Virus record (IMG/VR): IMGVR_UViG_3300045988_183178
Reading direction: 5' to 3' (one strand)
DNA from: a virus
DNA length: 64,000 nt
A model generated the notes under the pieces. It did no database searches. It was given only the letters and a program-made list of their open reading frames with translations, and had not been told where the DNA came from. Of the stretch, positions 12,450-46,256 are shown in pieces. The translations under genes and the position numbers were made by a program. Position 1 is the first letter of the stretch. Each line of letters begins with the position of its first letter.

Positions 12450-13715
12450 TTACTTAATCTTTTCCCCAGTATTCTTCTCATATTCCTCTACTGCCTTTGC
12501 AATGCTTTCATCAAGGCTTTCATATATACATATAGCTCTATCGATATGCGTTCTTACAACTTCCTCAGAGTCACTTATATCAGTCAGAAGTTTTGCTAAA
12601 ATATCTCCATGATTTTTAAGGAACATGCTTACTGTATGTATAAATGATACAAAATCAATTATGCCTTCTACATTAACTTTATTTGGAAAAAATCTAATAT
12701 TGTTATTAGAAAAAACAAGATTATCATTTACAATTGAATCTGCATATACAGAATCTATTAAAATCAATTTCTTTAAAAATGCTTGCTCTCCAGGATAATG
12801 CTTTGAGTCATATATATGAGATAATAAATTATCAGTATTATAACTGCTGCCATTATTATTTTTACTTGGAATATACATTGATTGTCTTCTCATGTCTTCA
12901 TATAAATGTTCGAAAAATCTTCCAGTAAATACTCTTTTATTAATTGAAGATGCAGTTAATATTGCTGCACCATATTTTTTCACCTGGACAAGAGTATTCT
13001 GCATTTTAAGCATTGCAGGGTTACTGACATATTTATCCATTTTTAATAATGTTTCAACATTCCTGCCATTGTTTTTACAAAAATCAATTATAGCTTGACT
13101 ATTAAGCAAATAGGTAGATACTTTTATTTTCCCTGATGTAAGAGCATGACTGATAATATTATATACAGCGTATTTTGATATTCCATATACTGATTCAGGA
13201 TACATGTTTACAAAAGTTTCAGAATATCCCGCTGTAATTATGTTAAGTATTGGGGAATACTTTTCTTTGTTTTGCAAACTCATAGCCCCCTGCAAAAATG
13301 ATGGCGTAGCTTTTTTCATATATGAAATATCGTGTATAATAGTCTCAAGTTCTTTTTCAGTTAATTTCTTATGTACAGAATCATTTTCTACTTTTGATGC
13401 AATTTCTTTAGAATTTGTTTCTGATATTTTTTCTAGCTTGTCCTTAAGCTCTGTAATTTCAGCTTTTAAAGCATCTTTTTCTTTTTCAATTTTTATCTGA
13501 TTATTATATAATTCTTTGAAATTTTCTTTTATATTGTCAAATGTACACTCAGACAATGCAACTATATCTCTTAAAAGCGCTAATTCTTCAAGTTTATGGC
13601 AATATTCTTTATATCCATTACTTTTAATTTTGTCATATGCAATTTCTGCGTACTTTTTATTATATTCCTCCTGTATGAACTGTTTAAAATCATTAATGTG
13701 TCTGTCAATATTCAT
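12450..13715 (-). CDS. hypothetical protein (421 aa) with an N-terminal coiled coil
   Basis: Long ORF; no motif recognised. Confidence 0.75.
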   Translation of the reverse strand: MNIDRHINDFKQFIQEEYNKKYAEIAYDKIKSNGYKEYCHKLEELALLRDIVALSECTFDNIKENFKELYNNQIKIEKEKDALKAEITELKDKLEKISETNSKEIASKVENDSVHKKLTEKELETIIHDISYMKKATPSFLQGAMSLQNKEKYSPILNIITAGYSETFVNMYPESVYGISKYAVYNIISHALTSGKIKVSTYLLNSQAIIDFCKNNGRNVETLLKMDKYVSNPAMLKMQNTLVQVKKYGAAILTASSINKRVFTGRFFEHLYEDMRRQSMYIPSKNNNGSSYNTDNLLSHIYDSKHYPGEQAFLKKLILIDSVYADSIVNDNLVFSNNNIRFFPNKVNVEGIIDFVSFIHTVSMFLKNHGDILAKLLTDISDSEEVVRTHIDRAICIYESLDESIAKAVEEYEKNTGEKIK

Positions 13716-13955
13716 GAATTTATTTCTCCTTTAAATTTATTTACTTTATACATGACAGAAAAAAAGGACCTCACACTAAGAAATTTCTTATTGTGACAGC
13801 CCTTAAATTAATATTAAGTATGTATTTTATAATTCTATTTCTATAATTTGCTGCGGTGATAGATAACCGTTCATATATACCTCATTGTATTTGATAGAAA
13901 GTGTATAAGCCGCTATCCCTGTATCTATGTTTTATAGAACTACAGGGATGTTTAA

Positions 13956-14213
13956 TTATTCTTCATCATTGTCATATATAATACTCTCAATAATATTAAC
14001 AGCCCTGTCTGCATATATAACTTCTTCTTCATCATCATTCGAGTATCCGTCATCATCATATGTACCTTCAGTCCACCAGCTGCAAAGAAGAGCTTTCTTA
14101 GAGGCTTCCTTAACTTCTCCTATTAAGGTATTTTTTACTGTATCTAATATACGTCTTTCATTTTCTGATTCTGCTTTTTCTATAAGTTCATTTATTGTAT
14201 TAAGTGTCTTCAT
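13956..14213 (-). CDS. small acidic protein
   Basis: RBS ATAAGGAGAAAT. Confidence 0.65.
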   Translation of the reverse strand: MKTLNTINELIEKAESENERRILDTVKNTLIGEVKEASKKALLCSWWTEGTYDDDGYSNDDEEEVIYADRAVNIIESIIYDNDEE

Positions 14214-25328: not shown

Positions 25329-26588
25329 TTAAATTACCAAGGTCTGTATCATTTCAGTTGACCTTGCCATTATGCGTTTACAATTACTCAATTTAGGTGT
25401 CTTGTATCCTTTTGGCATTGCCGAAAAATCAACCTTGTTACCATCTATATCCATGAGAACTGCATATCCAGTGGACATTCTACCCTTGATAAAATATTTG
25501 TTTCCAAAGTATCGAACTTTGTCAAATTTTCTAAAGCCACAAATCTTATCAGTGATAATAGGCTGTTCTGAACGAATCCCTTTTGTTTTTTGAAAATCAC
25601 CATCTGAAATGCATTTCTTTTTGTAAAGGTTGGATTTTACAGTAAATATATTGCCTTGTGTTGCAATCGTACAGGCATCATAATAATGTTCTTTGTCAAT
25701 GCCAAGAAGCAAACGGTTAGCTTTTGTCACATATCCGAAGGTCTCAACTGCATCTGGATATAATTTAAAAAGCTGTTTACGAATAGAGTTCATCTGTGTG
25801 GCATATTTAAGATTACCTTTAACTTTACCACTCAATTTGGGGTTAATTTTTCCACTATGTAAATCTTTATGACAGGTATGACACAGAGTAATTAGATTAC
25901 TTTCTTCATCAGAACCCCCCTGACTACGAAATAAAATATGATGAACTTCTAACTTACTATCCTTATGTTTGCCTTTACAATATTGACAAGTATAATTATC
26001 TCGATTAAGAACCATCGCTTTGGTATTCTCAAACCCATAATTAATACCTTTCTGATAACCCCAATGTTTAATTTTAGGATTAGCAAGATTTGGATTTTTC
26101 ATAAGGTGAGTATCAAACTGACCTGTCTCAAATACCATTTCTGTAATCGGAAGAATAAATTTAATATATTTTATCTCTTTAACATGACTATGAAGCTTAC
26201 TCTGCATCGTAGGGCTAAATCTATCATTCTTAATAGAATTAGCACGATTTAACCATCTTGCTTTTCTATAACGAGCTTTACGATTTCGTCTGTTTCTACG
26301 ATACTTTGCTCTTTGTGTCATTTTGCCGGTAATGTCGTTTCTTATAACAACTTCCGACATATAGATAATATCTCCATTGTCTTTGCTTACAGAAGTGCCA
26401 ATAGTTCCGCTTCCGGTATCTACACCAAGAGTTAAGTCTTGAGTGTAATTTGTTGTTTCATAAGTCAATTTAATTGTAAATGGCTCACGTTTCTTAACTT
26501 TTGCTTTGCTTTGTTTAAGTAACAATCTTGCTATAGAGTTACTACAGGGCATTAGTGGTTTACCATCTTGTGAAATCACATAAACCAT
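25329..26588 (-). CDS. iscB: IscB RNA-guided endonuclease (PLMP domain, RuvC-I/II/III split by HNH, Arg-rich bridge helix)
   Basis: Motifs present: DGKPLMP; LGVDTGSGTIGTSV (RuvC-I); KYRRNRRNRKARYRKARW (bridge helix); CQYCKGKH..HHILFRSQGG..NLITLCHTCH (HNH with CxxC pairs); HYYDAC (RuvC-III). The 419 aa length is typical of IscB. RBS AAGGAGG. Confidence 0.8.
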   Translation of the reverse strand: MVYVISQDGKPLMPCSNSIARLLLKQSKAKVKKREPFTIKLTYETTNYTQDLTLGVDTGSGTIGTSVSKDNGDIIYMSEVVIRNDITGKMTQRAKYRRNRRNRKARYRKARWLNRANSIKNDRFSPTMQSKLHSHVKEIKYIKFILPITEMVFETGQFDTHLMKNPNLANPKIKHWGYQKGINYGFENTKAMVLNRDNYTCQYCKGKHKDSKLEVHHILFRSQGGSDEESNLITLCHTCHKDLHSGKINPKLSGKVKGNLKYATQMNSIRKQLFKLYPDAVETFGYVTKANRLLLGIDKEHYYDACTIATQGNIFTVKSNLYKKKCISDGDFQKTKGIRSEQPIITDKICGFRKFDKVRYFGNKYFIKGRMSTGYAVLMDIDGNKVDFSAMPKGYKTPKLSNCKRIMARSTEMIQTLVI

Positions 26589-26880
26589 AAATAAGTTCCT
26601 CCTTATAAATACTCTACTTAATAGTAGGTGATGCGTACTTTGTCGTACTGTTTACCATACGATTGTTCCGACTTCAACTCGACAATGATATAAAGGCTTT
26701 TATGTACATATCACAAGGCTGTTCTTACTCTGACCTAACTTAAATATGTACGATAGAGCAACGGTCTGTTGCGTCAACCGAAGGTATCATAACCTAAATA
26801 TCGTAGTATCCATTTCTGAATACTTAGTCTGGTGAACCATTTAACAGAAGCCCACTACCTTTAGGTGGTGGGCAGTTCAC
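26589..26880 (-). ncRNA. candidate omega RNA (IscB guide/scaffold RNA) immediately 5' of iscB
   Basis: No ORF on either strand and local G/C enrichment. Multiple potential stems, including the perfect hairpin GCCCACTACC/GGTGGTGGGC. Position and size match known IscB omega RNAs. Confidence 0.45.
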
Positions 26881-27802
26881 TTAATTCACCTGATTCTTTG
26901 TTAAATATAAATATATCTGAACTCAGATAATCTTCTTCTTCCTGAATACCAAATATCTTTAATGCCATTTGAATTTCTTCAGGAGTAAATTCATTGTATT
27001 TACATATCAACAGAATATGTGCTGTAACAGGAACAATGTATAAATTTGTTTTCAGTTTCTCTGAAATATTCTTAAGCAAATTATTATTCAGAATTGCACT
27101 TGTGTTATAAAAGTCAATTATATTTTGAATTGCATATATTCCTTTAATACATTTGCTCTCAAACCCATCAGAATTACTTAGAGAAAATAATTCTTTCTTT
27201 GTTTTTTCATAATTATCATCATCTGCCAGTTGCGTCAAAAAATAATCACCTAATACACTGATAAAATATTTGTTGGAATATATTGAATGAATTGCAAGAT
27301 TGTACAATTCGTTTTCATCAATTTTCAGTATGTCTCTCATATAGTTATTATCAATTACAAACATTGTACCTTCTGAATTTTCTTTAGGTATGATCACATT
27401 ATAAATTATTTCGAACTCATAAAATGGCCTATGAGGAATACCGCTTAAATCTTCCATATTGTCCGGCTTTTGTATTAATTGAGGTATAATATAGTGTTTT
27501 ATATCATTTAAATTAATTTCTGGAGCTAAATTATTAAGTTTATATTCACTACCATTAGAATTTTTGTTTCTATAAAATGCTTCAGATATTGACAATGCAA
27601 TTTCTTCTATTGACGAATTATTTAAATATTGTTTATATAATTGATTTAATTTAAATTCTAAGGGACACATAAACTGATTTTTAGAATGAAAAATAAGCTT
27701 ATCTGATGTGCAAACTATATCTGTTGGTGTAATATCTTCAATATTTTGAAGTAATTCGAATTTAAGATGTTTAAGAAAATCTTCGTAATTCATTTTTTGC
27801 AT
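26871..27802 (-). CDS. hypothetical protein (310 aa); stop codon lies in the loop of hairpin 26860-26883
   Basis: ORF. Confidence 0.7.
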
Positions 27803-27989
27803 ATAATTAATTCTCCTTTTATTTAGTTATATTTTTAATATGACAGAAAAAATGAATTATTATTTTACATAAAATAATTGATGTGTGTTAAAATAAGACA
27901 GCAACTAAATGTAAATGCCTTTTATTTATTAAAATATCCCGTTTTTGTGTTTTTCTAAGCACTTTATTGGGTATACTATGCCTTCACTT

Positions 27990-28400
27990 GTAAAAAATAA
28001 TAACAATATATTGTACGTTTATTGTTATATATTAGTTTAATATGTTAACTTTATTAACAATATATAGTTATTTAAGATTTATTAAAATATAGCTAAGATA
28101 CAAAAATAATAACAATATATAGATATAAAATATGATTTAATATACATTAAAAATAACAACATTATGTTATAGAATAGAAAAATTTGTGTAATAAAATTAA
28201 CAATATATAGCTAAATATTTGATACATAAATGTAATAATGATAACAATATATAGTAATGTATTATCCGTTGCATAGCCAATAAAATGCCTTATATGTGTC
28301 AGAATAATACCATGATGTAGTTATCATATGCTGATTTAAGAGATAAAAAATGTTAATTTGATAACATATAATTGGTAATATTAGCAATTATATATGGATT
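27990..28400. repeat. iteron array: six or more copies of (A)TAACAATATATAG at about 40-52 bp spacing, inside a 1.2 kb ORF-poor, AT-rich region (27803-29083)
   Basis: Copies at 27997-28013, 28055-28067, 28106-28122, 28196-28210 and 28241-28255, with degenerate copies near 28151 and 28358. Confidence 0.6.
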
Positions 28401-29083
28401 AATTGGGTACAATAGACTGTATGATCAGTGAGAAAAATAAATATAACTGATTAATGGGATATAATTATTATTTACTAAAGTTAATTAATGGAATTACTGG
28501 AAACATATATAGGAATGATAGAGTAAAGGAAATAGATCTAAGAGCAAATAAGAAAGAATTAGTGTATAAGAATGCAGCTATTGGAGATAGAAATGGGATT
28601 ATTGGGCTTACTAAGGCATTTGCAGGGCGAAGAATAGATTTACAGGAATCTAGTAATCATAATTTTTGTAATTATCATATATTATATATGAGGGAATTAT
28701 ATTATTTATTAGTGTATTAAAGGCATTAATTGGGATAAATGAAGTGCTTGCTAGAGACAGGTAAGGAATTACCAGGGAAATAAACACAAAATGTATTAAG
28801 CTGATAAATGATATTGTATAAGGATATGACAATAATAGTTATACGCTTTTAATCCTTAATAATATTCTGGCGGTTATTATATTAAGTCTTAAAACGCTAT
28901 TAAGGAATAATCAAATGTATTATATAAGGCTCTAATTTTTATATTTTAATAATAAAAAGCGTATCAATGGAAAAGAAAATAATAAAAAGGTTCTAAAAAA
29001 GGTGTATGACATATTACACTTAAAGGAAGTGTAATCATAAAAAAAATACAGCTACCTATTGATAACTGCATTTTATTTATATA

Positions 29084-30112
29084 TTACATAAAAGATTGTA
29101 TACTATATCCTTTCCGTCTGAAACGAACTCTAATCTTTTTTATTGCTTTTGATTCAATCTGTCTGATTCGTTCTCTGGATACATTCCATTCAGTACCTAT
29201 ATCTTGTAAAGTTTTAACTTTTGAGCCATATCCCATTCTACCCTTAATTACATATAATTCTCTAGGAGTGAGACAATCTTCAACTTCTTTCCAAAGCAGT
29301 TCTTTCATTTCTTTTTGAATAATCGTATCTTCAACTTTAGGTTCAGGAGCTTCTATATAATCAGCCAAACATGAATCGTCATGGCCTTCATCACTTTGAA
29401 TAGGTGCATCTAATGAAACCAATTCATTAAAACTCTGAATATGCACAAGCATTTCTTTAGTTAAAAGAGGATATCTTTGTTTTACTACATCATATAATTC
29501 ATCAATTGTAGGTTTTCTTTGAAGTTTATTAGTTAAATCCACAAATGTAGTCTTAACAAAAGAATCCTGTTCTCTTACATGTACAGGGAATCTAACTAAT
29601 AAATCATAATTGGCTAATTCTCTATATATACTCTGTCTAATCCAATGAGTTGCATAAGTTGAAAATGCATATCCTAATTTATAATCAAACATTTGTATAG
29701 CTCTGTATAACCCGAAAATACCGGCCTGACATAAATCATCCATTTCAAAACTTTGCGTTTTAGCTGTAACAGCTTTAGCAATACTGATGACTAAACGCAT
29801 ATTAGATAAAATCAATTTTTCGGTTATTTCTTTTTTCTTTTTAGGATGTTTTTTTATCTCTTCAAATAATTTAAGAGTTTCATCTTTGGATAAAACCGGA
29901 TAATCAGCGAATGATTTAATATAATAAGTTATATTATTTTCTAATAATAGTTTCTCTTTTTCATTTAAAATCTCTTTATCATTTAAAATATCGGTATAAT
30001 TATCCTCTGATAAAATATTTATGTTTTCTATTGGTTTATTTGTATCAAATAATTCATCAATATATTCATCTTTATTGTTTTTTTTATTTAATAATAAATT
30101 CTTATCTGCCAT
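29084..30112 (-). CDS. sigma-70 family RNA polymerase sigma factor
   Basis: Region 2 (..GIFGLYRAIQMFDYKLGYAFSTYATHWIRQSI..) and region 4 helix-turn-helix (..LQDIGTEWNVSRERIRQIESKAIKKIR..). RBS GAGGAG. Confidence 0.85.
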   Translation of the reverse strand: MADKNLLLNKKNNKDEYIDELFDTNKPIENINILSEDNYTDILNDKEILNEKEKLLLENNITYYIKSFADYPVLSKDETLKLFEEIKKHPKKKKEITEKLILSNMRLVISIAKAVTAKTQSFEMDDLCQAGIFGLYRAIQMFDYKLGYAFSTYATHWIRQSIYRELANYDLLVRFPVHVREQDSFVKTTFVDLTNKLQRKPTIDELYDVVKQRYPLLTKEMLVHIQSFNELVSLDAPIQSDEGHDDSCLADYIEAPEPKVEDTIIQKEMKELLWKEVEDCLTPRELYVIKGRMGYGSKVKTLQDIGTEWNVSRERIRQIESKAIKKIRVRFRRKGYSIQSFM

Positions 30113-31435: not shown

Positions 31436-31547
31436 ATATTTTCCTCCAACCTTTCTAATATATATATGACAGATACAATTTTAAAAATCTTTACATAAAA
31501 AAATACCGCTGCAATAAACAGCGGTAAAACATAAAATAAATATTAAA

Positions 31548-33233
31548 TTAGCATTTGCGTACTATTGAAGGTGCTGACATATCAGGGTTAATGAATTTCT
31601 TGCATAAATGTTCAATTCCGGTTGTTGAATCAAGCCAATATAAATAATCCCCGTCATTATCTACCAGATATTCATTAATAGAATCAAGAACATCGTTTAC
31701 TTCGGAAACAGTACATATAAATCTGTATGAAGACTTATTTTTCTTTAAAGGTTTAACAGACTTAACAATAATCTGATATACAGTTTCGTCATCTGAAGAT
31801 CTAAAATCATCTACTTGAATTTTTCCTGATAAACATAATTTAGCATCATTAACAAGTAAGTCTCTAATATTTGCATAATCTTTAGAAAAACATACACCAT
31901 TAATAGAACCTGTTTTATCTTCTACCTCAAAAGTTACCCATTCGTATCCATTTCTATCCTTTCTTACAACAAGATTTTTAATTATACCAGATACATCGTT
32001 AACTTCTGTTGAAATATCAGAAATGGGATCTGTATAAATATTATACTCATCAATTGGATGCCCTGTAATATAAACACCTAACACTTCTTTTTCATCATTT
32101 AGAATCTGACCTAAATCATCTTCTACATAATCAATATCTATATTTTCAAGATCATCTTCTAAGCTTTCTATAACTGTCTTAGCTGAATTGATACGTTTAA
32201 TTATGGAATCCTTAGTTGGCATCTTTTTTGAAGTAACTTGAAAGGAAATATTTTCTTCTGAAATTCTTTCCTTAAACTCATCAAGATCAATATAATCTTC
32301 CACAAATTCAATAACTTTACTTGCGTTTTCAATAAACTTACTCTTCTCTCTGATTTTCTTAATTGTATCCTGAATTTCTTTCATACAAATCATATCTAAT
32401 GATATCATTGTTCTTGTATAACCAAGGCAATCGAAAGCACCTGCTTTAATTAAGGAACTTAATGCTTCTGCATTAATATTTGTTCGTTTGATAAAATCCT
32501 TAATATCAGAATATTCTCCATTAACATTTCTATCTTCAATAATTTTAGCTGCTTCTGATCCAACATTCTTAATATTACTCAGACCATACAAAATGTTCCC
32601 ATCTACAACATCACAATGTAAATTTGAAGCATTAATGTCCGGAGGCAATACCTTTACTCCAAAATCAAGGGCATCACTAATATCATCAGCGACTTCATCA
32701 ATCTTATCAGTATGATTTATTACATTTGTAAGATAATAAGCCGGATAATAATACTTAAGAAAAGCAGTCCAATATGATGTAACAGCATAAGCAGTAGCAT
32801 GTGACTTATTAAACGCATACTTAGCAAAGTCAACCATCGCATCCCAGATTTTATGAGCAATTTCTTCTGATATTCCATTTGCAATACAACCTGGTACTAA
32901 TGCTTCATTTTCTTTTTTAGTATCAGCATTACCATATACAAAAGTGTGTCTTTCAGCATCAATCTCATCCTGATGTTTTTTTGACATAGCTCTACGGACT
33001 AAATCAGAACGCCCCCATGTATATCCTGCTAAATCACGAACAATCTGCATTACCTGTTCCTGATAAACTATCTGTCCATAAGTAGTTGACAAAATTGGCT
33101 CTAATTGAGGACATAAATATTTAATCTTAGATGCATCCTTTTTACCTTCTATGAAATCAGGTATAAACTTTTCAGGACCAGGACGATATAAAGCATTCAT
33201 TGCTATTAAATCTTCAATACCTGTTTTATTCAT
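31548..33233 (-). CDS. dnaE: DNA polymerase III alpha (DnaE-type) C-terminal segment (fingers, beta-binding, OB fold), translated as a separate polypeptide
   Basis: ALYRPGP, YQEQVMQI, FNKSHATAYA and the OB region are present. It has its own promoter motif at 33271 and AAAGGAG followed by ATG. The N-terminus (MNKTGIEDLIAMNALYRPGP) continues exactly where ORF 38783..39538 stops (..FQFESAGMRNNLKKL). Confidence 0.85.
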   Translation of the reverse strand: MNKTGIEDLIAMNALYRPGPEKFIPDFIEGKKDASKIKYLCPQLEPILSTTYGQIVYQEQVMQIVRDLAGYTWGRSDLVRRAMSKKHQDEIDAERHTFVYGNADTKKENEALVPGCIANGISEEIAHKIWDAMVDFAKYAFNKSHATAYAVTSYWTAFLKYYYPAYYLTNVINHTDKIDEVADDISDALDFGVKVLPPDINASNLHCDVVDGNILYGLSNIKNVGSEAAKIIEDRNVNGEYSDIKDFIKRTNINAEALSSLIKAGAFDCLGYTRTMISLDMICMKEIQDTIKKIREKSKFIENASKVIEFVEDYIDLDEFKERISEENISFQVTSKKMPTKDSIIKRINSAKTVIESLEDDLENIDIDYVEDDLGQILNDEKEVLGVYITGHPIDEYNIYTDPISDISTEVNDVSGIIKNLVVRKDRNGYEWVTFEVEDKTGSINGVCFSKDYANIRDLLVNDAKLCLSGKIQVDDFRSSDDETVYQIIVKSVKPLKKNKSSYRFICTVSEVNDVLDSINEYLVDNDGDYLYWLDSTTGIEHLCKKFINPDMSAPSIVRKC

Positions 33234-38782: not shown

Positions 38783-39538
38783 CTATGAGCATAACTTCTT
38801 AAGGTTATTTCTCATACCGGCTGACTCAAACTGGAAAACATTCTTAGTTCTTCCTTTTGCATATACTTCTTTGTATACCTTATCAGCTTTAGGACCCTCT
38901 AATGGAATATTCATTACATCAATTACTTCTCCTGTATCTCTCTGAATCATTCTGAGTGTGTCAGTAATAATTGTAAGAGTTTTTAATCCAAGAAAATCCA
39001 TTTTTAATAATCCATTAGCTTCGCACTGAATCATGTCCATTTCTGTAGTTTTAATTCCCTTTTTTCCATCTCTAATAGGAATATAATCAGTAACATCATT
39101 ACTATCATAAATAATAACACCTGCGGCATGTTGTGCGTATGTCGTAAGCATACCTTCACAATGAGCTGCAATATTAAGAATAGAAATAGCATCTGGATTA
39201 CTATTATATTCATCCTTTAAGAAATCTAACAAAGAAATGCTGTCCTGAATATTAATGCCTAATTCATCAACCTTATTAGTATCTTTCATGCCAACAATAT
39301 CTTCAAAATTAGTTGCTTTAGCAGGCACTTTCTTACGAATCTGATCTCCTAAAGATAAGAATTTCTTTTCATCATCATAAGCTTTCTTTCCATAATATCT
39401 TGCAGCATCTCTGATAGCACCTTTAGCCTGCTGTCTTGATTCTGTAATAATTCCAACAACAGCTTCACTACCATATTTAGCTCTTACATACTCAATTGTC
39501 TTTTCTCTTACTCCAAGAGCAAGATCACTATCGATATC
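38783..39538 (-). CDS. dnaE: DNA polymerase III alpha exon 2 (palm: DIDSD .. KMDFLGLKTL .. FQFES)
   Basis: Protein begins at the catalytic DxD and ends KKLCS followed by a stop. There is no start codon or RBS of its own; it is joined to exon 1 by the intron. Confidence 0.7.
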   Translation of the reverse strand, partial: DIDSDLALGVREKTIEYVRAKYGSEAVVGIITESRQQAKGAIRDAARYYGKKAYDDEKKFLSLGDQIRKKVPAKATNFEDIVGMKDTNKVDELGINIQDSISLLDFLKDEYNSNPDAISILNIAAHCEGMLTTYAQHAAGVIIYDSNDVTDYIPIRDGKKGIKTTEMDMIQCEANGLLKMDFLGLKTLTIITDTLRMIQRDTGEVIDVMNIPLEGPKADKVYKEVYAKGRTKNVFQFESAGMRNNLKKLCS

Positions 39539-40478
39539 CAAATATACCCCTACTTTCGTAGTACTTTAACACTTGTATAAGTGGGATTAGACTATATCTC
39601 AATATAATATTGTTAATATTATATTTCAACGCACTTCCAACTGTAACCATTCTCAGTTGTACTCCTTAAAAAGGATAGTCGTTACACTTTAAAATAAATA
39701 ATATTATATACGAACAATTTTTAAGTCATTCCATTTTAAATATTTATGCATTGAGGAATAACTTGCGTTATATTTTTCTTTAGCATATCGAGCTGCTGCT
39801 AATATGCTTTCAAATCTATCAATTAATATATCTCCTTTATATAATTTACAACACTTATAATTTCTTACAGGAGACATAGTTTTATAACTATCATATAAAT
39901 TGTCTTTTCTAGTACACCATTCTAAATTATTCACCTTACAATTTTGTTTATTTTTGTCTTTATGATTAACTTCTGGTAGATTATAAGGATTAGGAATAAA
40001 ATTCATCGCAACTAATCGATGCAATAAATATTTTTTATTATCTAATCTTATCATCCTGTAATTCTTTTTACTATCTAAAAAAGGTTTAAGTTGTCGAATT
40101 TTCCCTTGTTTTATACTAAAAATCTTTCCATATGAAGTTATGTAATATTCGTGGTGATTTTTAATTTCTACTATTTTTTCACCTTTTTCAAGGAATGATG
40201 TAAAATTGATATAATCTATCATAAATATACACCTCCTTATTTATATAATATTATTTATAATCTTAGCACGGTATCGCCTGCTATCCTTCAATATCTTTTA
40301 TATAAAAATATTAGGACCGTAGGTTCTCTTACGAAGCTGCTTCGTCTATGGGTTAAGCTATATATCCTGTTGTGACACTTTATATAGCAGTCTTATTCAA
40401 CTTCTACCGTTAGCACTTAATAATAAAATATTAAGCACACCTCTGAGTTAGAGTCCACGCTGAACGCCCAATATATTT
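39539..40478 (-). other. group I intron (about 940 nt) interrupting dnaE at the SMP|DID codons; carries an HNH homing-endonuclease ORF
   Basis: The 5' exon ends in U (..ATGCCT) and the intron ends in G (..GGGTATATTTG). The intron has G/C-rich structured flanks, including an S-like element GAGATATAGTCTAATCC and an ACTACGAAAGTAGGG hairpin. Confidence 0.65.
39704..40222 (-). CDS. HNH homing endonuclease (freestanding phage HNH_3-like)
   Basis: HRLVAMNFIPNP...EVNHKDKNKQNCKVNNLEW matches the HNH motif of phage intron endonucleases. AAGGAGG then ATG. Confidence 0.8.
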   Translation of the reverse strand: MIDYINFTSFLEKGEKIVEIKNHHEYYITSYGKIFSIKQGKIRQLKPFLDSKKNYRMIRLDNKKYLLHRLVAMNFIPNPYNLPEVNHKDKNKQNCKVNNLEWCTRKDNLYDSYKTMSPVRNYKCCKLYKGDILIDRFESILAAARYAKEKYNASYSSMHKYLKWNDLKIVRI

Positions 40479-42272
40479 AGGCATACTTACTCTTTCTGGA
40501 TTTAAGAATCGTTCAAAAATCAGATTATACTTAAATGGATCAATTCCGGTAATACCAAGTAAATATGTAACCAATGAACCGGCACCTGAACCTCTTCCAA
40601 TGCCTATTCCAATTCCGGTATTATAATTGTGAGCCTTAACATACTCTTTTGCACCTTCAATTGTTAAAGGTACTTCTGATAGTTTATCCATAGGTACTAA
40701 TCCACAAATTCTTCCATATTCCAGGAAGTCCTTTACAATTAAATGATAATCGGCAAAGCCCATCTGAATGATAATATTAAGTTCGTATTCCATTCGTTTC
40801 TGATGTTCTTCATCCCATCCTTTTCCGTTAGGATATCTCCAATTAATTCCCTTAATTGCTTCAGATCTTAATAATTCGTTTGAGTCCTTGTTCTTATCAA
40901 ATACTGGATAATGATTAGATTTTTCTGGAATATAAGCACATCTTTTTCCAATTACATTTAAGTTATTGAGTGCTTCTGCAACCTGATCATCTGTTAATAT
41001 AGCTGATAAGGCCTGAGCAAGTTCGTAAGGTGTTTTTACATATAACTCTTTATCTGATTCCGACTCACTTATCTTAATAAATCTTAAAAATTTAGCTACA
41101 TTACGCATATCAATACTTCTATCAGAATTATCTGCCATATGTGCATCATTAGCAGCAACTAATGGGATATTATGCTTCCTTGCTAACTGAGCTAACACAG
41201 GATATGTTCTGCTTTCCATTTCAAGCCCATGATTCTGAACTTCAATGTAATAATTACCTGCTCCAAAAATTTCCTGATAAAAAAGCATTGTCTTTTCTGC
41301 TTCAGACATTAATTCTATTGGGCTTTTCTTTAATGATTCATAATGCTGTATCTTATTTTCATGATTAATATATTCCTCTACTTTAAGACTTATATCCTTT
41401 AACTCGGCTTTCTTAGCATTAACTAATTTTCTGACATTAGGAATTTTATCTTTAGCTTCCAGAATTTTATTATTTATCTCCTCATATTCGTTAATCAGTT
41501 TAATAAGCTCTGGATCATCATCATTTAAACACTTTCTTGCATCTCTTAATTTTCTTGAAATCTGTGTTCTTTCTGATTTAAGTTCCTTGGAATCACGAAT
41601 ATTAATCAATTCATCTAAATCTGCCGATACCCTTTCAAATTCATCTTTAGCTGAAAGATATTCTTTATCATCAGGACTTATACAATCACGTATAACTAGC
41701 TCGTCTTTTTCAGTAGTATGCTGCTGTGCTTTTCTTTCTCTGTTAATCATTTTATCCAAAACATCATCTGATAATAATTGCAGAGCTGGTGCACCCGAAA
41801 CGCAAGCAGAAGTTGCTATTATATCACCGTTAAAGTTATATTTCTTTAAATCTGATATTGTAATAACAGGCTTTCCCATTCTTTTTTCAGAAGCCTTAGA
41901 ATTTAACTTATCAATAATATGCTTGCCTCTTTCTGAAGTGGCTAACATAATCATATGGCCAATCTGCTCATTTATCTTAAATGGTGGCACTTCAATATAA
42001 GCCTCTACGCCATAAATGATATTAAAAGGATGTTCCTCAGTACTTATTTTCTTAGCGTAATCAATACATGTTTGCATTGCTGAAAATGATGCATGGTCCG
42101 TAACAGCAAATTTAGTATATCCTGCATTAAATGCAGCATCTAAATAACTTTTAGGTTCATCTACGGCATCAAACAAAGAGCCTCCTGGATGGTTATGTTC
42201 ACACACTGTAACTCCTGACTCAATAACCTTTTTTGTTAATTCTCCAATTTTTACATGTTCAAACATTGACAT
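40479..42272 (-). CDS. dnaE: DNA polymerase III alpha exon 1 (PHP domain and start of palm; ends at ..[11 protein letters not shown])
   Basis: [12 protein letters not shown] / TDHASF PHP motifs, then [21 protein letters not shown]. Confidence 0.85.
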
Positions 42273-45446: not shown

Positions 45447-45711
45447 AAAAACTCCTTACATTTAAATATACTCTAAAACTATAATTTAAAAATTAACTTA
45501 GAGTTTTAAAATAGCATTTTTAATACTTCAATATCATCATATACAAATAAATATCGACTGAAATCCCATCTTCAGATATTTCACTGGCAACGGCATGTAT
45601 TCCATCGATGAGCGTCTTATTTACTTCATTTTATTACTCAAAATACCAGCTATAATATGCCTTTATTATCAATCAACACTATCCCAAACACATTACACAT
45701 CAATTATTATT

Positions 45712-45879
45712 CATTTGCATAGTTCTCTACTGCAACTTCTGTCTGCTGTGTTTCAACATTCGTATTCTTAGCTGTATTTATAACACTATAGCCTACCACA
45801 AACATTATTGTACTAATCCAAATAACAGCTATAATAACAATATAAATGCCATAATCATGCAAAAAATCTAACATAAACT
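45712..45879 (-). CDS. small membrane protein of about 55 aa (approximate coordinates)
   Basis: MLDFLHDYGIYIVIIAVIWISTIMFVVGY.. after AAGAGGGACAG. Confidence 0.35.
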
Positions 45880-46221
45880 GTCCCTCTTATTTTATTTCTT
45901 TTTCTCTAATCTTTATTATTAAAATCCTGCCTTTTACAGGTAAGCAATATGCTTAGGTTGAGTTTCACTATTTACTTTTATTGAAAAACAATAAAGGAAA
46001 ATGTTAAAGCTGAATAATAAATTATTCTGCCTTATTTTTTTTCTTCTTGTTTTCTTCCTTTTCCTTTAAAAGACTATTCTCCATCTTTACAAAAATTGAT
46101 TTCTTCTTGCCAAAAGGCTTTGCTGTAATTCCCATTTGTTAAATCCTTTCTTAATTAAAATATTTTTTAAAGACATTTAATATATGACAGATTTAATTAC
46201 TCATTTTTTTACATAAAAAAA

Positions 46222-46243
46222 AGAGGTGTTTTTTGCCACCTCT
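46222..46243 (-). terminator. intrinsic terminator (AGAGGTG/CACCTCT) flanked by runs of A and T on both sides
   Basis: Seen directly in the sequence. Confidence 0.6.
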
Positions 46244-46256
46244 TTTTTAAAATAAT

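Follow-up and report, generated by a model that had tools for sequence, protein, structure and literature searches.

An array of helically phased near-palindromes in a noncoding island of a large gut Firmicutes element

A noncoding island between two minus-strand genes

The DNA described here, IMG/VR virus record IMGVR_UViG_3300045988_183178, is a stretch of 64,000 nucleotides (nt), referred to below as the window, and its minus strand carries every gene. Between a DUF5688 gene (26861-27802) and a sigma-factor gene (29084-30112; Pfam Sigma70_r2 and r4 matches), both on that strand, lies an island of 1.28 kb (27803-29083; no strand assigned), delimited from the list of open reading frames (ORFs) and from syntenic islands in related loci; the only ORFs inside it, of 41, 88, and 60 amino acids, are mechanical. 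An earlier reading of the letters alone (the sequence-only reading) had called this the only long ORF-free stretch of the window and had proposed it as an origin or control region, and the first of these points is borne out. The other long gap, at 45447-46256, has plausible small minus-strand genes led by ribosome-binding sites, so that the island is the sole long stretch that is truly noncoding. No tRNA or tmRNA was found in the window, an Rfam covariance search of 27000-30000 gave no match with an E value below 0.6, the single Rfam match of the whole window (HEARO) lies outside the island, and among seven relatives no island has a match at the gathering score. Together with the comparisons below, these results show that the island is a conserved noncoding locus of a large extrachromosomal element of gut Firmicutes. 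It holds, from left to right, an array of short near-palindromic sites, a purine-rich tract, and a conserved hairpin block.

A repeat search finds the 13-mer TAACAATATATAG exactly at 28055, 28110, 28198, and 28242 and with one mismatch at 28001, always on the plus strand, and there is no further exact copy in the 64 kb. Read at full length, the array consists of eight near-palindromes of 16 bp that resemble TAACA-N6-TGTTA, with 5-bp arms and a 6-bp A/T-rich center, spread along the plus strand over 28001-28377. Sites 1 (TAACAATATATTGTAC, 28001-28016), 5 (TAACAATATATAGCTA, 28198-28213), and 6 (TAACAATATATAGTAA, 28242-28257) come from the repeat search and the 16-bp reading of the sites, and site 3 (TAACAATATATAGATA, 28110-28125) from the repeat search and an alignment of six genomes, in which site 2 (TAACAATATATAGTTA, 28055-28070) is invariant. 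Site 4 (TAACAACATTATGTTA, 28154-28169) has perfect TAACA and TGTTA arms, site 7 (TACCATGATGTAGTTA, 28308-28323) has a left arm of the TACCA type, as in distant clades, and site 8 (TAACATATAATTGGTA, 28362-28377) has a right arm of the TGGTA type. The sequence-only reading had counted six or more direct copies spaced by 40-52 bp. That count holds only if degenerate copies are included, the exact copies numbering four, plus one with a single mismatch, and the measured spacings are 54, 55, 44, 44, 44, 66, and 54 bp. Nor are the sites direct iterons; they are near-palindromes of the dimer type, four, five, or six helical turns apart. The broader proposal of a regularly spaced array of putative protein-binding repeats stands, given the eight sites and their counterparts in relatives.

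Islands in related clades and the spacing of their sites

Relatives of the locus were found using the sigma factor and the C-terminal fragment of the DNA polymerase III alpha subunit (DnaE) as anchors. Five further clades, with DnaE C-fragments 49-71% identical to that of the window, have a syntenic ORF-free island of 0.95-1.35 kb: L005 (12027-13356), L025 (13614-14566), L027 (13556-14567), L028 (13421-14775), and L029 (7762-8939). The island comes after the DnaE C-fragment, an Rce1-like protease and, in some clades, a sigma factor and/or a membrane protein; it always trails the block of DnaE C-fragment and Rce1-like gene, at the end of the replication gene cluster, and its flanking genes differ between clades. 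No gene was found to co-occur with it, as the DnaE C-fragment, the Rce1-like protein, and the membrane protein, which are common to the loci, are also present in L026, a clade that has no such island.

Each of the relatives' islands has four to seven sites of the family TA(A/C)CA-N6-TG(G/T)TA. The form is TACCA-N6-TGGTA with mostly perfect arms in L027 and L029 and the same with one arm altered in L028; L025 has TAACA...TGGTA, L005 has TAACA...TGTTA or TAACA...TGGTA, and in the window TAACA is paired with a degenerate right arm. What the clades conserve is the outer arms (T1 A2. C4 A5 / T12 G13. T15 A16), and the DNA between the sites diverges. Within each locus of 15-64 kb, clusters of sites are confined to the island: the sole match elsewhere in L027, L028, and L029 is one site in L028, and the window and L005 have a few scattered single matches. 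Scans of IMG/VR with a four-site pattern and of GTDB genomes with a three-site pattern returned only unrelated tandem repeats.

The 29 distances between neighboring sites in the six clades fall only at 43-47, 54-57, and 65-66 bp, with none between these classes, and their best period is 10.5-11 bp, with a resultant length (R = 0.85) that was reached by 0 of 5,000 random sets. Because the distances occur only in classes about 11 bp apart, the sites lie a whole number of helical turns from one another, with a small constant offset. The order of the spacings is also alike between clades, with 54 and 55 bp followed by 44, 44, and 44 bp in the window, and 109 bp followed by 44, 45, 43, and 43 bp in L005. 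Spacing that varied among relatives had been named beforehand as the result that would speak against the array; the spacing classes are instead kept across all six clades. Since the site family, the spacing classes, and the skew described below (with the exception given there) recur in five diverged relatives, the pattern is beyond chance. Phasing of this kind is the signature of proteins ranged on a single side of the helix, or of DNA that winds around a protein core, and spacing quantized at four, five, or six turns, kept over deep divergence, offers a clean and testable mark of a wrapped protein-DNA complex. A CRISPR array is ruled out, as the conserved core is 13-16 nt, not a repeat of at least 23 nt, and the period jumps by about 11 bp (44, 55, 66).

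Constraint was measured in an alignment of six genomes that are 96-99% identical (the window, L001, L002, L054, L056, and L057). Variable positions make up 3.1% of the eight sites (4/128) and 9.3% of the DNA between them (24/258), so that the sites are about as conserved as the flanking sigma (3.4%) and DUF5688 (4.4%) genes. The hairpin block has 4.4%, and the purine-rich tract has 14%, with several indels, which is about four times the rate of the flanking genes. The putative binding sites and the hairpin block are thus under constraint, and the tract is near neutral.

The array region (27995-28380; no strand assigned) contains both the 150-nt window with the lowest G+C content (12%) and the least stable 200-bp duplex of the 64 kb (−195.7 kcal/mol; mean −234, standard deviation 10, next lowest −205.5). 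The A/T-rich, easily unwound DNA expected at or beside the repeats of an iteron-type plasmid origin is therefore present.

GTDB bins of Bacteroidales/Prevotellaceae (L034, L036, L039, L049, L053, and others) carry unrelated TACCA-N6-TGGTA arrays with a period of 22-23 bp, at several loci per genome, in which the arms are conserved and the centers variable; these look like binding arrays of their own kind. Within the L028 island, G+C-rich segments at 13790-14010 and at 13575 have a possible long-range stem (CAGTCCTCTC..GTGTGC / GCACAC..GAGAGGACTG) and a repeated CCCGGAGAGGACT motif. They have no Rfam match at the gathering score, and could be an inserted RNA element specific to that clade.

The purine-rich tract and the hairpin block

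To the right of the array, a fast-evolving, untranslated tract (28381-28995) is rich in G and in purines on the plus strand, with a GC skew of +0.42 and 60% purine. In 100-nt windows, plus-strand purine reaches 60-73% at about 28450-28800, compared with 34-46% in the flanking genes, and the GC skew of 28001-29000 is +0.35, with negative values in all other 1-kb bins; the reversed purine skew reported from the letters alone is thus real. In window plus orientation, the tract has an excess of G over C (+0.22 to +0.42) in five of the six clades, L029 being the one without, and in the flanking genes the sign is mostly reversed. Over the window as a whole, cumulative GC skew declines monotonically save for a local blip of 1 kb, and both flanks share the same gene direction and skew, which contradicts the suggestion of a strand-switch region. 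All called genes in about 10 kb further upstream in a close relative are likewise on one strand.

In the genes of the element, the nontemplate strand is the G-rich strand. Rightward transcription is therefore the simplest explanation for a near-neutral tract with a skew opposite to that of the genes, and we infer that 28381-28995 is probably transcribed in the plus sense. The conserved reversed composition agrees with the plus-strand transcription already proposed, although no promoter rises above chance (see below). The tract is not a conserved structured RNA, a candidate rejected because there is neither a fold signal nor an Rfam match: folds of 28400-28990 and 28820-29000 on both strands are no better than those of shuffled sequences (z = +0.29, −0.11, −0.25, and +0.43), and a strong local hairpin in L005 (z = −2.95) is not conserved in the window. 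Nor is the 88-codon plus-strand ORF at 28454-28720, which the sequence-only reading had included in a proposed check for a transcript, a gene. Four of five close relatives have a 1-nt deletion within it, at 28583, and the fifth (L054) has indels at 28498 and 28540; L005 lacks any counterpart, and searches of Pfam and PHROG gave no match. A weaker second repeat, ATTAAT(T)GGG(T/A)A, has good plus-strand copies at 28398-28410, 28448-28460, and 28725-28738 and looser ones at 27966, 28592, and 28601; none was seen in relatives, and the repeat may be a chance one.

The hairpin block (28996-29040; no strand assigned) comprises the inverted repeat GTGTA-TGACATAT-TACAC at 29002-29019 and an overlapping second hairpin, ACACTT..AAGTGT. 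The inverted repeat is unique in the window and corresponds to the hairpin noted previously at the sigma-gene end. The window, L005, and L025 conserve its form A(A/G)GTGTATGACATA(T/C)TACAC (an 18-mer that is the same to within one base), which did not appear in the displayed islands of L027, L028, and L029; an IMG/VR scan with the 18-mer returned only two close relatives and chance matches in coding DNA. The stem is without covariation, which leaves the hairpin at 29002-29019 a putative one; the block may be a second protein site or a structural element. It sits just past the intrinsic terminator of the sigma-factor gene (29043-29074, minus strand). Read on the minus strand, the block contains TGTCATA, the core of a motif, ttttttcTGTCATAt, and the island copy reads CATACA, with the final T absent. 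The TATGACAT variant that the sequence-only reading had noted here lacks this critical last T of the −10 element, and is therefore probably not a promoter.

Motif ttttttcTGTCATAt is strongly conserved and occurs about 30 times in the window, upstream of minus-strand genes and 25-35 nt before their ribosome-binding sites (for example, at 27839-27845, 31465-31471, and 46183-46189), and it also precedes nrdD of L030, a 47% relative (positions 50-66). It looks like an extended −10 promoter (TGn-CATATT), and in a subset of copies TTATGTAAAA lies 27 nt upstream of the TGTCATA core. At the other end of the island, the promoter-like element of the DUF5688 gene (27836-27880, minus strand) is of this extended −10 type, with TTATGTAAAA, 17 nt, and then cTGTCATAT.

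Nature of the element

The replication cluster of the window encodes a RecJ-like exonuclease, a RecA/UvsX-like recombinase, a DnaG-type primase, a UvrD-type helicase, a 5′-3′ exonuclease, and a split DnaE. DnaE is in three minus-strand pieces (31548-33233, 38783-39541, and 40431-42272); an HNH_3/NUMOD4 homing-endonuclease gene (39704-40222) separates the first two, and about 5.5 kb, with the 5′-3′ exonuclease, an RlaP-like nucleotidyltransferase, DUF3232, and others, separates the second and third. The number of pieces varies, with two in L025 and L030 and three in L005. Among phage and plasmid reference collections, no match exceeds 38% protein identity. IMG/VR has two contigs with about 98% identity to the window, and metagenome contigs with the same genes reach 278 kb (ERZ27246972 k141_120606) and 322 kb (OCHC01000010.1), the latter carrying a close relative of the locus. 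One window protein is indexed in 1248 assembly blocks, with contigs of up to 278 kb, and a 99% identical protein is labeled Lachnospira pectinoschiza in one NCBI metagenome bin.

No virion genes were found among the proteins searched. Three relatives have, beside the DnaE C-fragment, ParA together with a small partner as well as a Rep_3 initiator accompanied by classical repeat arrays (L027, 6050-8690; L028, 7664-9889 and 17671-20270; L029, 1-3168), which marks the family as plasmids or phage-plasmids; a tblastn search of the 64-kb window found no Rep_3 or ParA homologue. The element looks like a megaplasmid, a phage-plasmid, or a jumbo phage, and is at least as megaplasmid- or phage-plasmid-like as it is phage-like. 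A tie to the published 'Hodor' megaplasmids is not established; Rep_3, ParA, and ParB are named in the paper on them, whereas DnaE and a sigma factor are not (PMC12934698).

In the window, an IscB-type gene (RRXRR and HNH, 419 amino acids; 25329-26588, minus strand) is accompanied by a HEARO/omega RNA at 26667-26880 (Rfam RF02033, 107.7 bits), and the G+C content around it is 0.32-0.34, compared with about 0.27 nearby. Homology to L001-L004, running leftward from the island, ends exactly at 26880, which is the RNA 5′ end, so the IscB element has been inserted, or has replaced other sequence, directly downstream of the DUF5688 gene in this genome. In L005, the island at about 13230-13400 (minus strand) holds a TnpB/Cas12f-like remnant (peptide ...YYPSSQTCNCCGFKNP...; Pfam PF07282, E = 2e-4, under the gathering score), followed by G+C-richer sequence. 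The two together put IS200/605-type elements in or beside the island in two clades.

Possible functions of the island

We tentatively rank first the possibility that the island is an origin-like site for replication or copy-control assembly, on account of its location, the instability of its DNA, a phasing whose steps of about 11 bp match those of iteron origins, and the absence of any other origin-like locus from the window. An origin function is a reasonable guess and not a finding. Neither the 64 kb nor the Pfam annotation of about 10 kb lying farther upstream in a close relative turned up another such locus or any initiator gene. Slight support comes from the IS200/605-type elements that two clades have in or beside the island, since elements of this type target single-stranded DNA. 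The island would then be a conserved cis-acting platform on which a protein-DNA complex assembles. A helix-turn-helix type protein, probably one that the element encodes and that co-evolves with the sites, would bind as dimers on one face of the helix, and the bound dimers may interact, bend the DNA or wrap it, and help the array region to melt or pair. Such a locus could serve as an origin or copy-control site for the element's own machinery (the three-piece DnaE, primase, helicases, and 5′-3′ exonuclease), separate from the Rep_3 plasmid origin of the relatives. The G-rich tract of about 0.6 kb would probably be transcribed rightward, away from the array and toward the sigma-gene terminator, and its transcript could activate or prime the site, possibly via an R-loop, or insulate two operons that run in the same direction. 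A more specific and rather more speculative version is that the island is a second origin for the element's DnaE replisome, primed or activated by a G-rich R-loop transcript and working beside a Rep_3 origin. The origin or control region of the sequence-only reading is thus supported in part, by the phased repeat array, the least stable DNA, and the conserved reversed composition, and the iteron type, the strand switch, and the 88-codon ORF are dropped.

Several observations weigh against an origin-like role. No initiator or DNA-binding gene consistently adjoins the island, whose neighbors are sigma factor, DUF5688, membrane protein, or small unknown genes, with the relatives' Rep_3 genes 3-6 kb off, and no initiator or DNA-binding protein was found among the window proteins with Pfam, PHROGs, NCBIfam, PADLOC, or PDB. 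There is no TTATCCACA match (a DnaA box) with one or no mismatch inside the island. Cumulative skew, the check suggested for an origin, has no extremum at the island within this 64-kb window of an element of more than 300 kb, and a scan for sigma-70-type promoters is at chance level (18 found, 18.1 expected), with no convincing rightward promoter. In clade L026 the neighboring genes are kept and the island is absent from that place. The perfect palindrome TACCAATATAGTGGTA in L028 (19256-19271) lies not in the island but about 95 bp upstream of the Rep_3 start codon, a placement that looks like the behavior of a transcription factor. Finally, L027, L028, and L029 carry, at other loci, Rep_3 with iterons unrelated to the island sites and ParA with repeats of its own: about nine copies of a distinct 20-bp repeat (AAGTTATGAAAAAT.TGGAG) precede Rep_3 in L027, AACCTTTAAAA-type repeats precede it in L028, and the repeats upstream of parA are 8-bp TATTATTG-type in L027 and TATTGTA-type in L029. 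Because these Rep_3 and ParA loci carry different repeats, the island is neither an ordinary plasmid origin nor the centromere of those loci. A Rep_3-like iteron origin was also rejected directly, there being no 17-22-bp direct repeats at a spacing of about 22 bp, no adjacent rep gene, and no DnaA boxes, and readings as attP, pac/cos, or oriT were set aside, with no fitting repeat geometry and no adjacent integrase, terminase, or relaxase gene found.

The alternatives partly overlap, and not all are mutually exclusive. A possible explanation, to which we give somewhat less credence than to an origin-like site, is an operator array for a global transcription regulator, whose looping dimers would control read-through from the replication and sigma genes, the downstream promoter and, in some relatives, the Rep_3 promoter, in the manner of a phage immunity region or a plasmid KorA/KorB-type regulon. 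Dimeric regulators typically have palindromic sites such as these, of 16 bp; the island is bracketed by a terminator and the next promoter, its loss in L026 is tolerated, and the lone perfect site before L028 Rep_3 has a chance expectation of about 0.02 per locus, estimated from base composition. However, none of the sites overlaps the promoter predicted downstream (the closest lies about 120 bp off in the window), the array is separated from the next gene by the TnpB remnant in L005 and by the G+C-rich inserts in L028, there is no adjacent regulator gene, and five to eight sites at 44-66 bp over 250-400 bp would be unusual for operators. Another possibility is a centromere-like maintenance element (a second partition site, or a tethering or handcuffing locus) on the lines of F sopC, Epstein-Barr virus oriP FR, or P1 incA, in which a protein would coat the array to segregate or count copies and the sites need not overlap promoters; the 16-bp palindromes with a modal period of about 44 bp, which resemble F sopC, and the conserved phasing fit, and ParB/KorB-type proteins bind single rep-promoter sites as well, which would fit L028:19256. 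We nonetheless consider this rather unlikely, as there is no ParB, ParR, or TubR gene beside the island, no ParA in the 64-kb window, and no ParB domain in any scanned protein, the relatives' ParA loci use other repeats, and the 16-bp cores are conserved but not whole tandem units. The emphasis could also be moved to the tract, with a purine-rich, unstructured noncoding RNA of the plus strand (about 28400-29075) as the main product, acting as antisense or insulator against sigma-operon read-through, and the array as its regulatory region. The reversed G-over-C and purine skew of a near-neutral tract in five of six clades favors this, and the stem of the sigma terminator could fold on the plus strand too, but the tract has no conserved sequence, no fold signal, no Rfam match, and no identified promoter, it evolves fast with indels, and L029 is without the skew, which together make this an unlikely main product. 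Fast evolution of the spacer with indels and the TnpB remnant in the L005 island are what might be expected of decayed gene remnants or a junk spacer with chance repeats, a reading that we hardly credit and that the comparative data contradict: the island's length, position, site family, phasing, and skew are kept in six clades whose DnaE C-fragments have diverged as far as described above, and the sites are about as conserved as coding sequence.

A different lead comes from NrdR, the host dATP/ATP-sensing repressor of ribonucleotide reductase genes. NrdR boxes have highly conserved positions C4, A6, A8, T9, T11, and G13 (PMC13584703), all six of which are matched by the five window sites that bear the 13-mer, compared with four or five in the relatives' sites, and site 2 agrees at 14 of its 16 bases with Listeria nrdDG box 2, ACACAATATATAGTTA (supplement oligonucleotide table, PMC12051234). 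The window-clade sites could then be NrdR boxes that link the element to the dNTP pool or sequester NrdR and so derepress host dNTP synthesis, and we found no ribonucleotide reductase gene in the window. Pairs of NrdR boxes tolerate whole-helical-turn spacings, with 15-16 or 24-27 bp accepted (PMC12051234), but the spacers here are 28, 38-39, and 50 bp. Scored against a weight matrix of 18 published boxes, the top three sites of the window reach 9.3-11.5 bits, compared with 9.2-20 for known boxes; eight equally good chance matches occur elsewhere in the window, and the other window sites and all L005 island sites fall below 9 bits. Conservation across clades is in the outer arms and not in the inner NrdR positions, and the shift of arms from TAACA to TACCA is what would be expected of a co-evolving, element-encoded partner, not of a conserved host repressor. 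The array is upstream of no nrd gene (the downstream genes are DUF5688 or unknown), and where a relative does encode a class III ribonucleotide reductase (L030, 107-2308; NrdD with an ATP-cone), its nrdD has no boxes in the 106 nt available upstream. The window also has no zinc-ribbon candidate for a phage-encoded NrdR-like protein. We have thus mostly rejected the NrdR-box reading and regard it as very improbable, and we think it just as improbable that the array has converged on, or been co-opted as, host NrdR boxes, with at least six per copy soaking up the repressor and switching on host reductase genes. If true, this would be a DNA 'sponge' for a host repressor, through which the element gains dNTPs without a reductase of its own.

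An origin-like or copy-control site would be of interest for several reasons. The element is very common in human gut metagenomes and is without a relative that has been cultured or annotated, and a cis-acting control site would be a handle for finding its binding protein, as well as for asking how a giant Firmicutes plasmid or phage-plasmid with its own DNA polymerase III starts or counts replication. It may also be useful for building Lachnospiraceae vectors.

Comparison with known systems

Phased repeat arrays at origins and centromeres are already a known kind of element; the particular site family, the rule of four, five, or six turns, the pairing with a skew-reversed spacer, and the host element are undescribed in the collections and literature searched. 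NrdR boxes resemble the sites as 16-bp partial palindromes with C4, G13, and an A/T-rich center, and window-clade sites match the six conserved positions, but the islands differ in spacing, genomic context, matrix scores, and the pattern of cross-clade conservation. Rep_3-type arrays (P1 incC/incA, F ori2/incC) are similar in their phased sites, with spacing a multiple of about 11 bp, their noncoding setting, and a possible second array for copy control. The classical iterons, however, are 17-22-bp direct repeats spaced by about 22 bp and bound by Rep monomers, and the Rep_3 iterons of the relatives differ from the island sites in both sequence and locus. The family of repeats and dyad symmetry element of Epstein-Barr virus (EBV) oriP also present palindromes of 16-18 bp to one dimeric protein for episome replication and maintenance, although that is a eukaryotic virus with a 30-bp period and a known binder, EBNA1, and the likeness is one of analogy only.

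In lambda-type origins, palindromic iterons are bound by O-protein dimers beside an A/T-rich unwinding region, and the origin is activated by transcription. The islands share the dyad-symmetric phased repeats, the locally most meltable DNA, the location in a replication cluster, and a probable nearby transcript; the four sites of lambda, however, are spaced by about 24 bp and lie within its initiator gene, whereas the islands have four to eight, 44-66 bp apart, in noncoding DNA and with no identified initiator. The centromere sopC of F consists of 43-bp units with one 16-bp palindrome each, and the resemblance of these SopB sites to the island is in the array of 16-bp palindromes, the period of about 43-44 bp, the large low-copy element, and the position off promoters. 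In sopC, however, the units are tandem and lie beside sopAB, whereas the island conserves only the cores, at 44, 55, or 66 bp, with no adjacent ParB-type gene.

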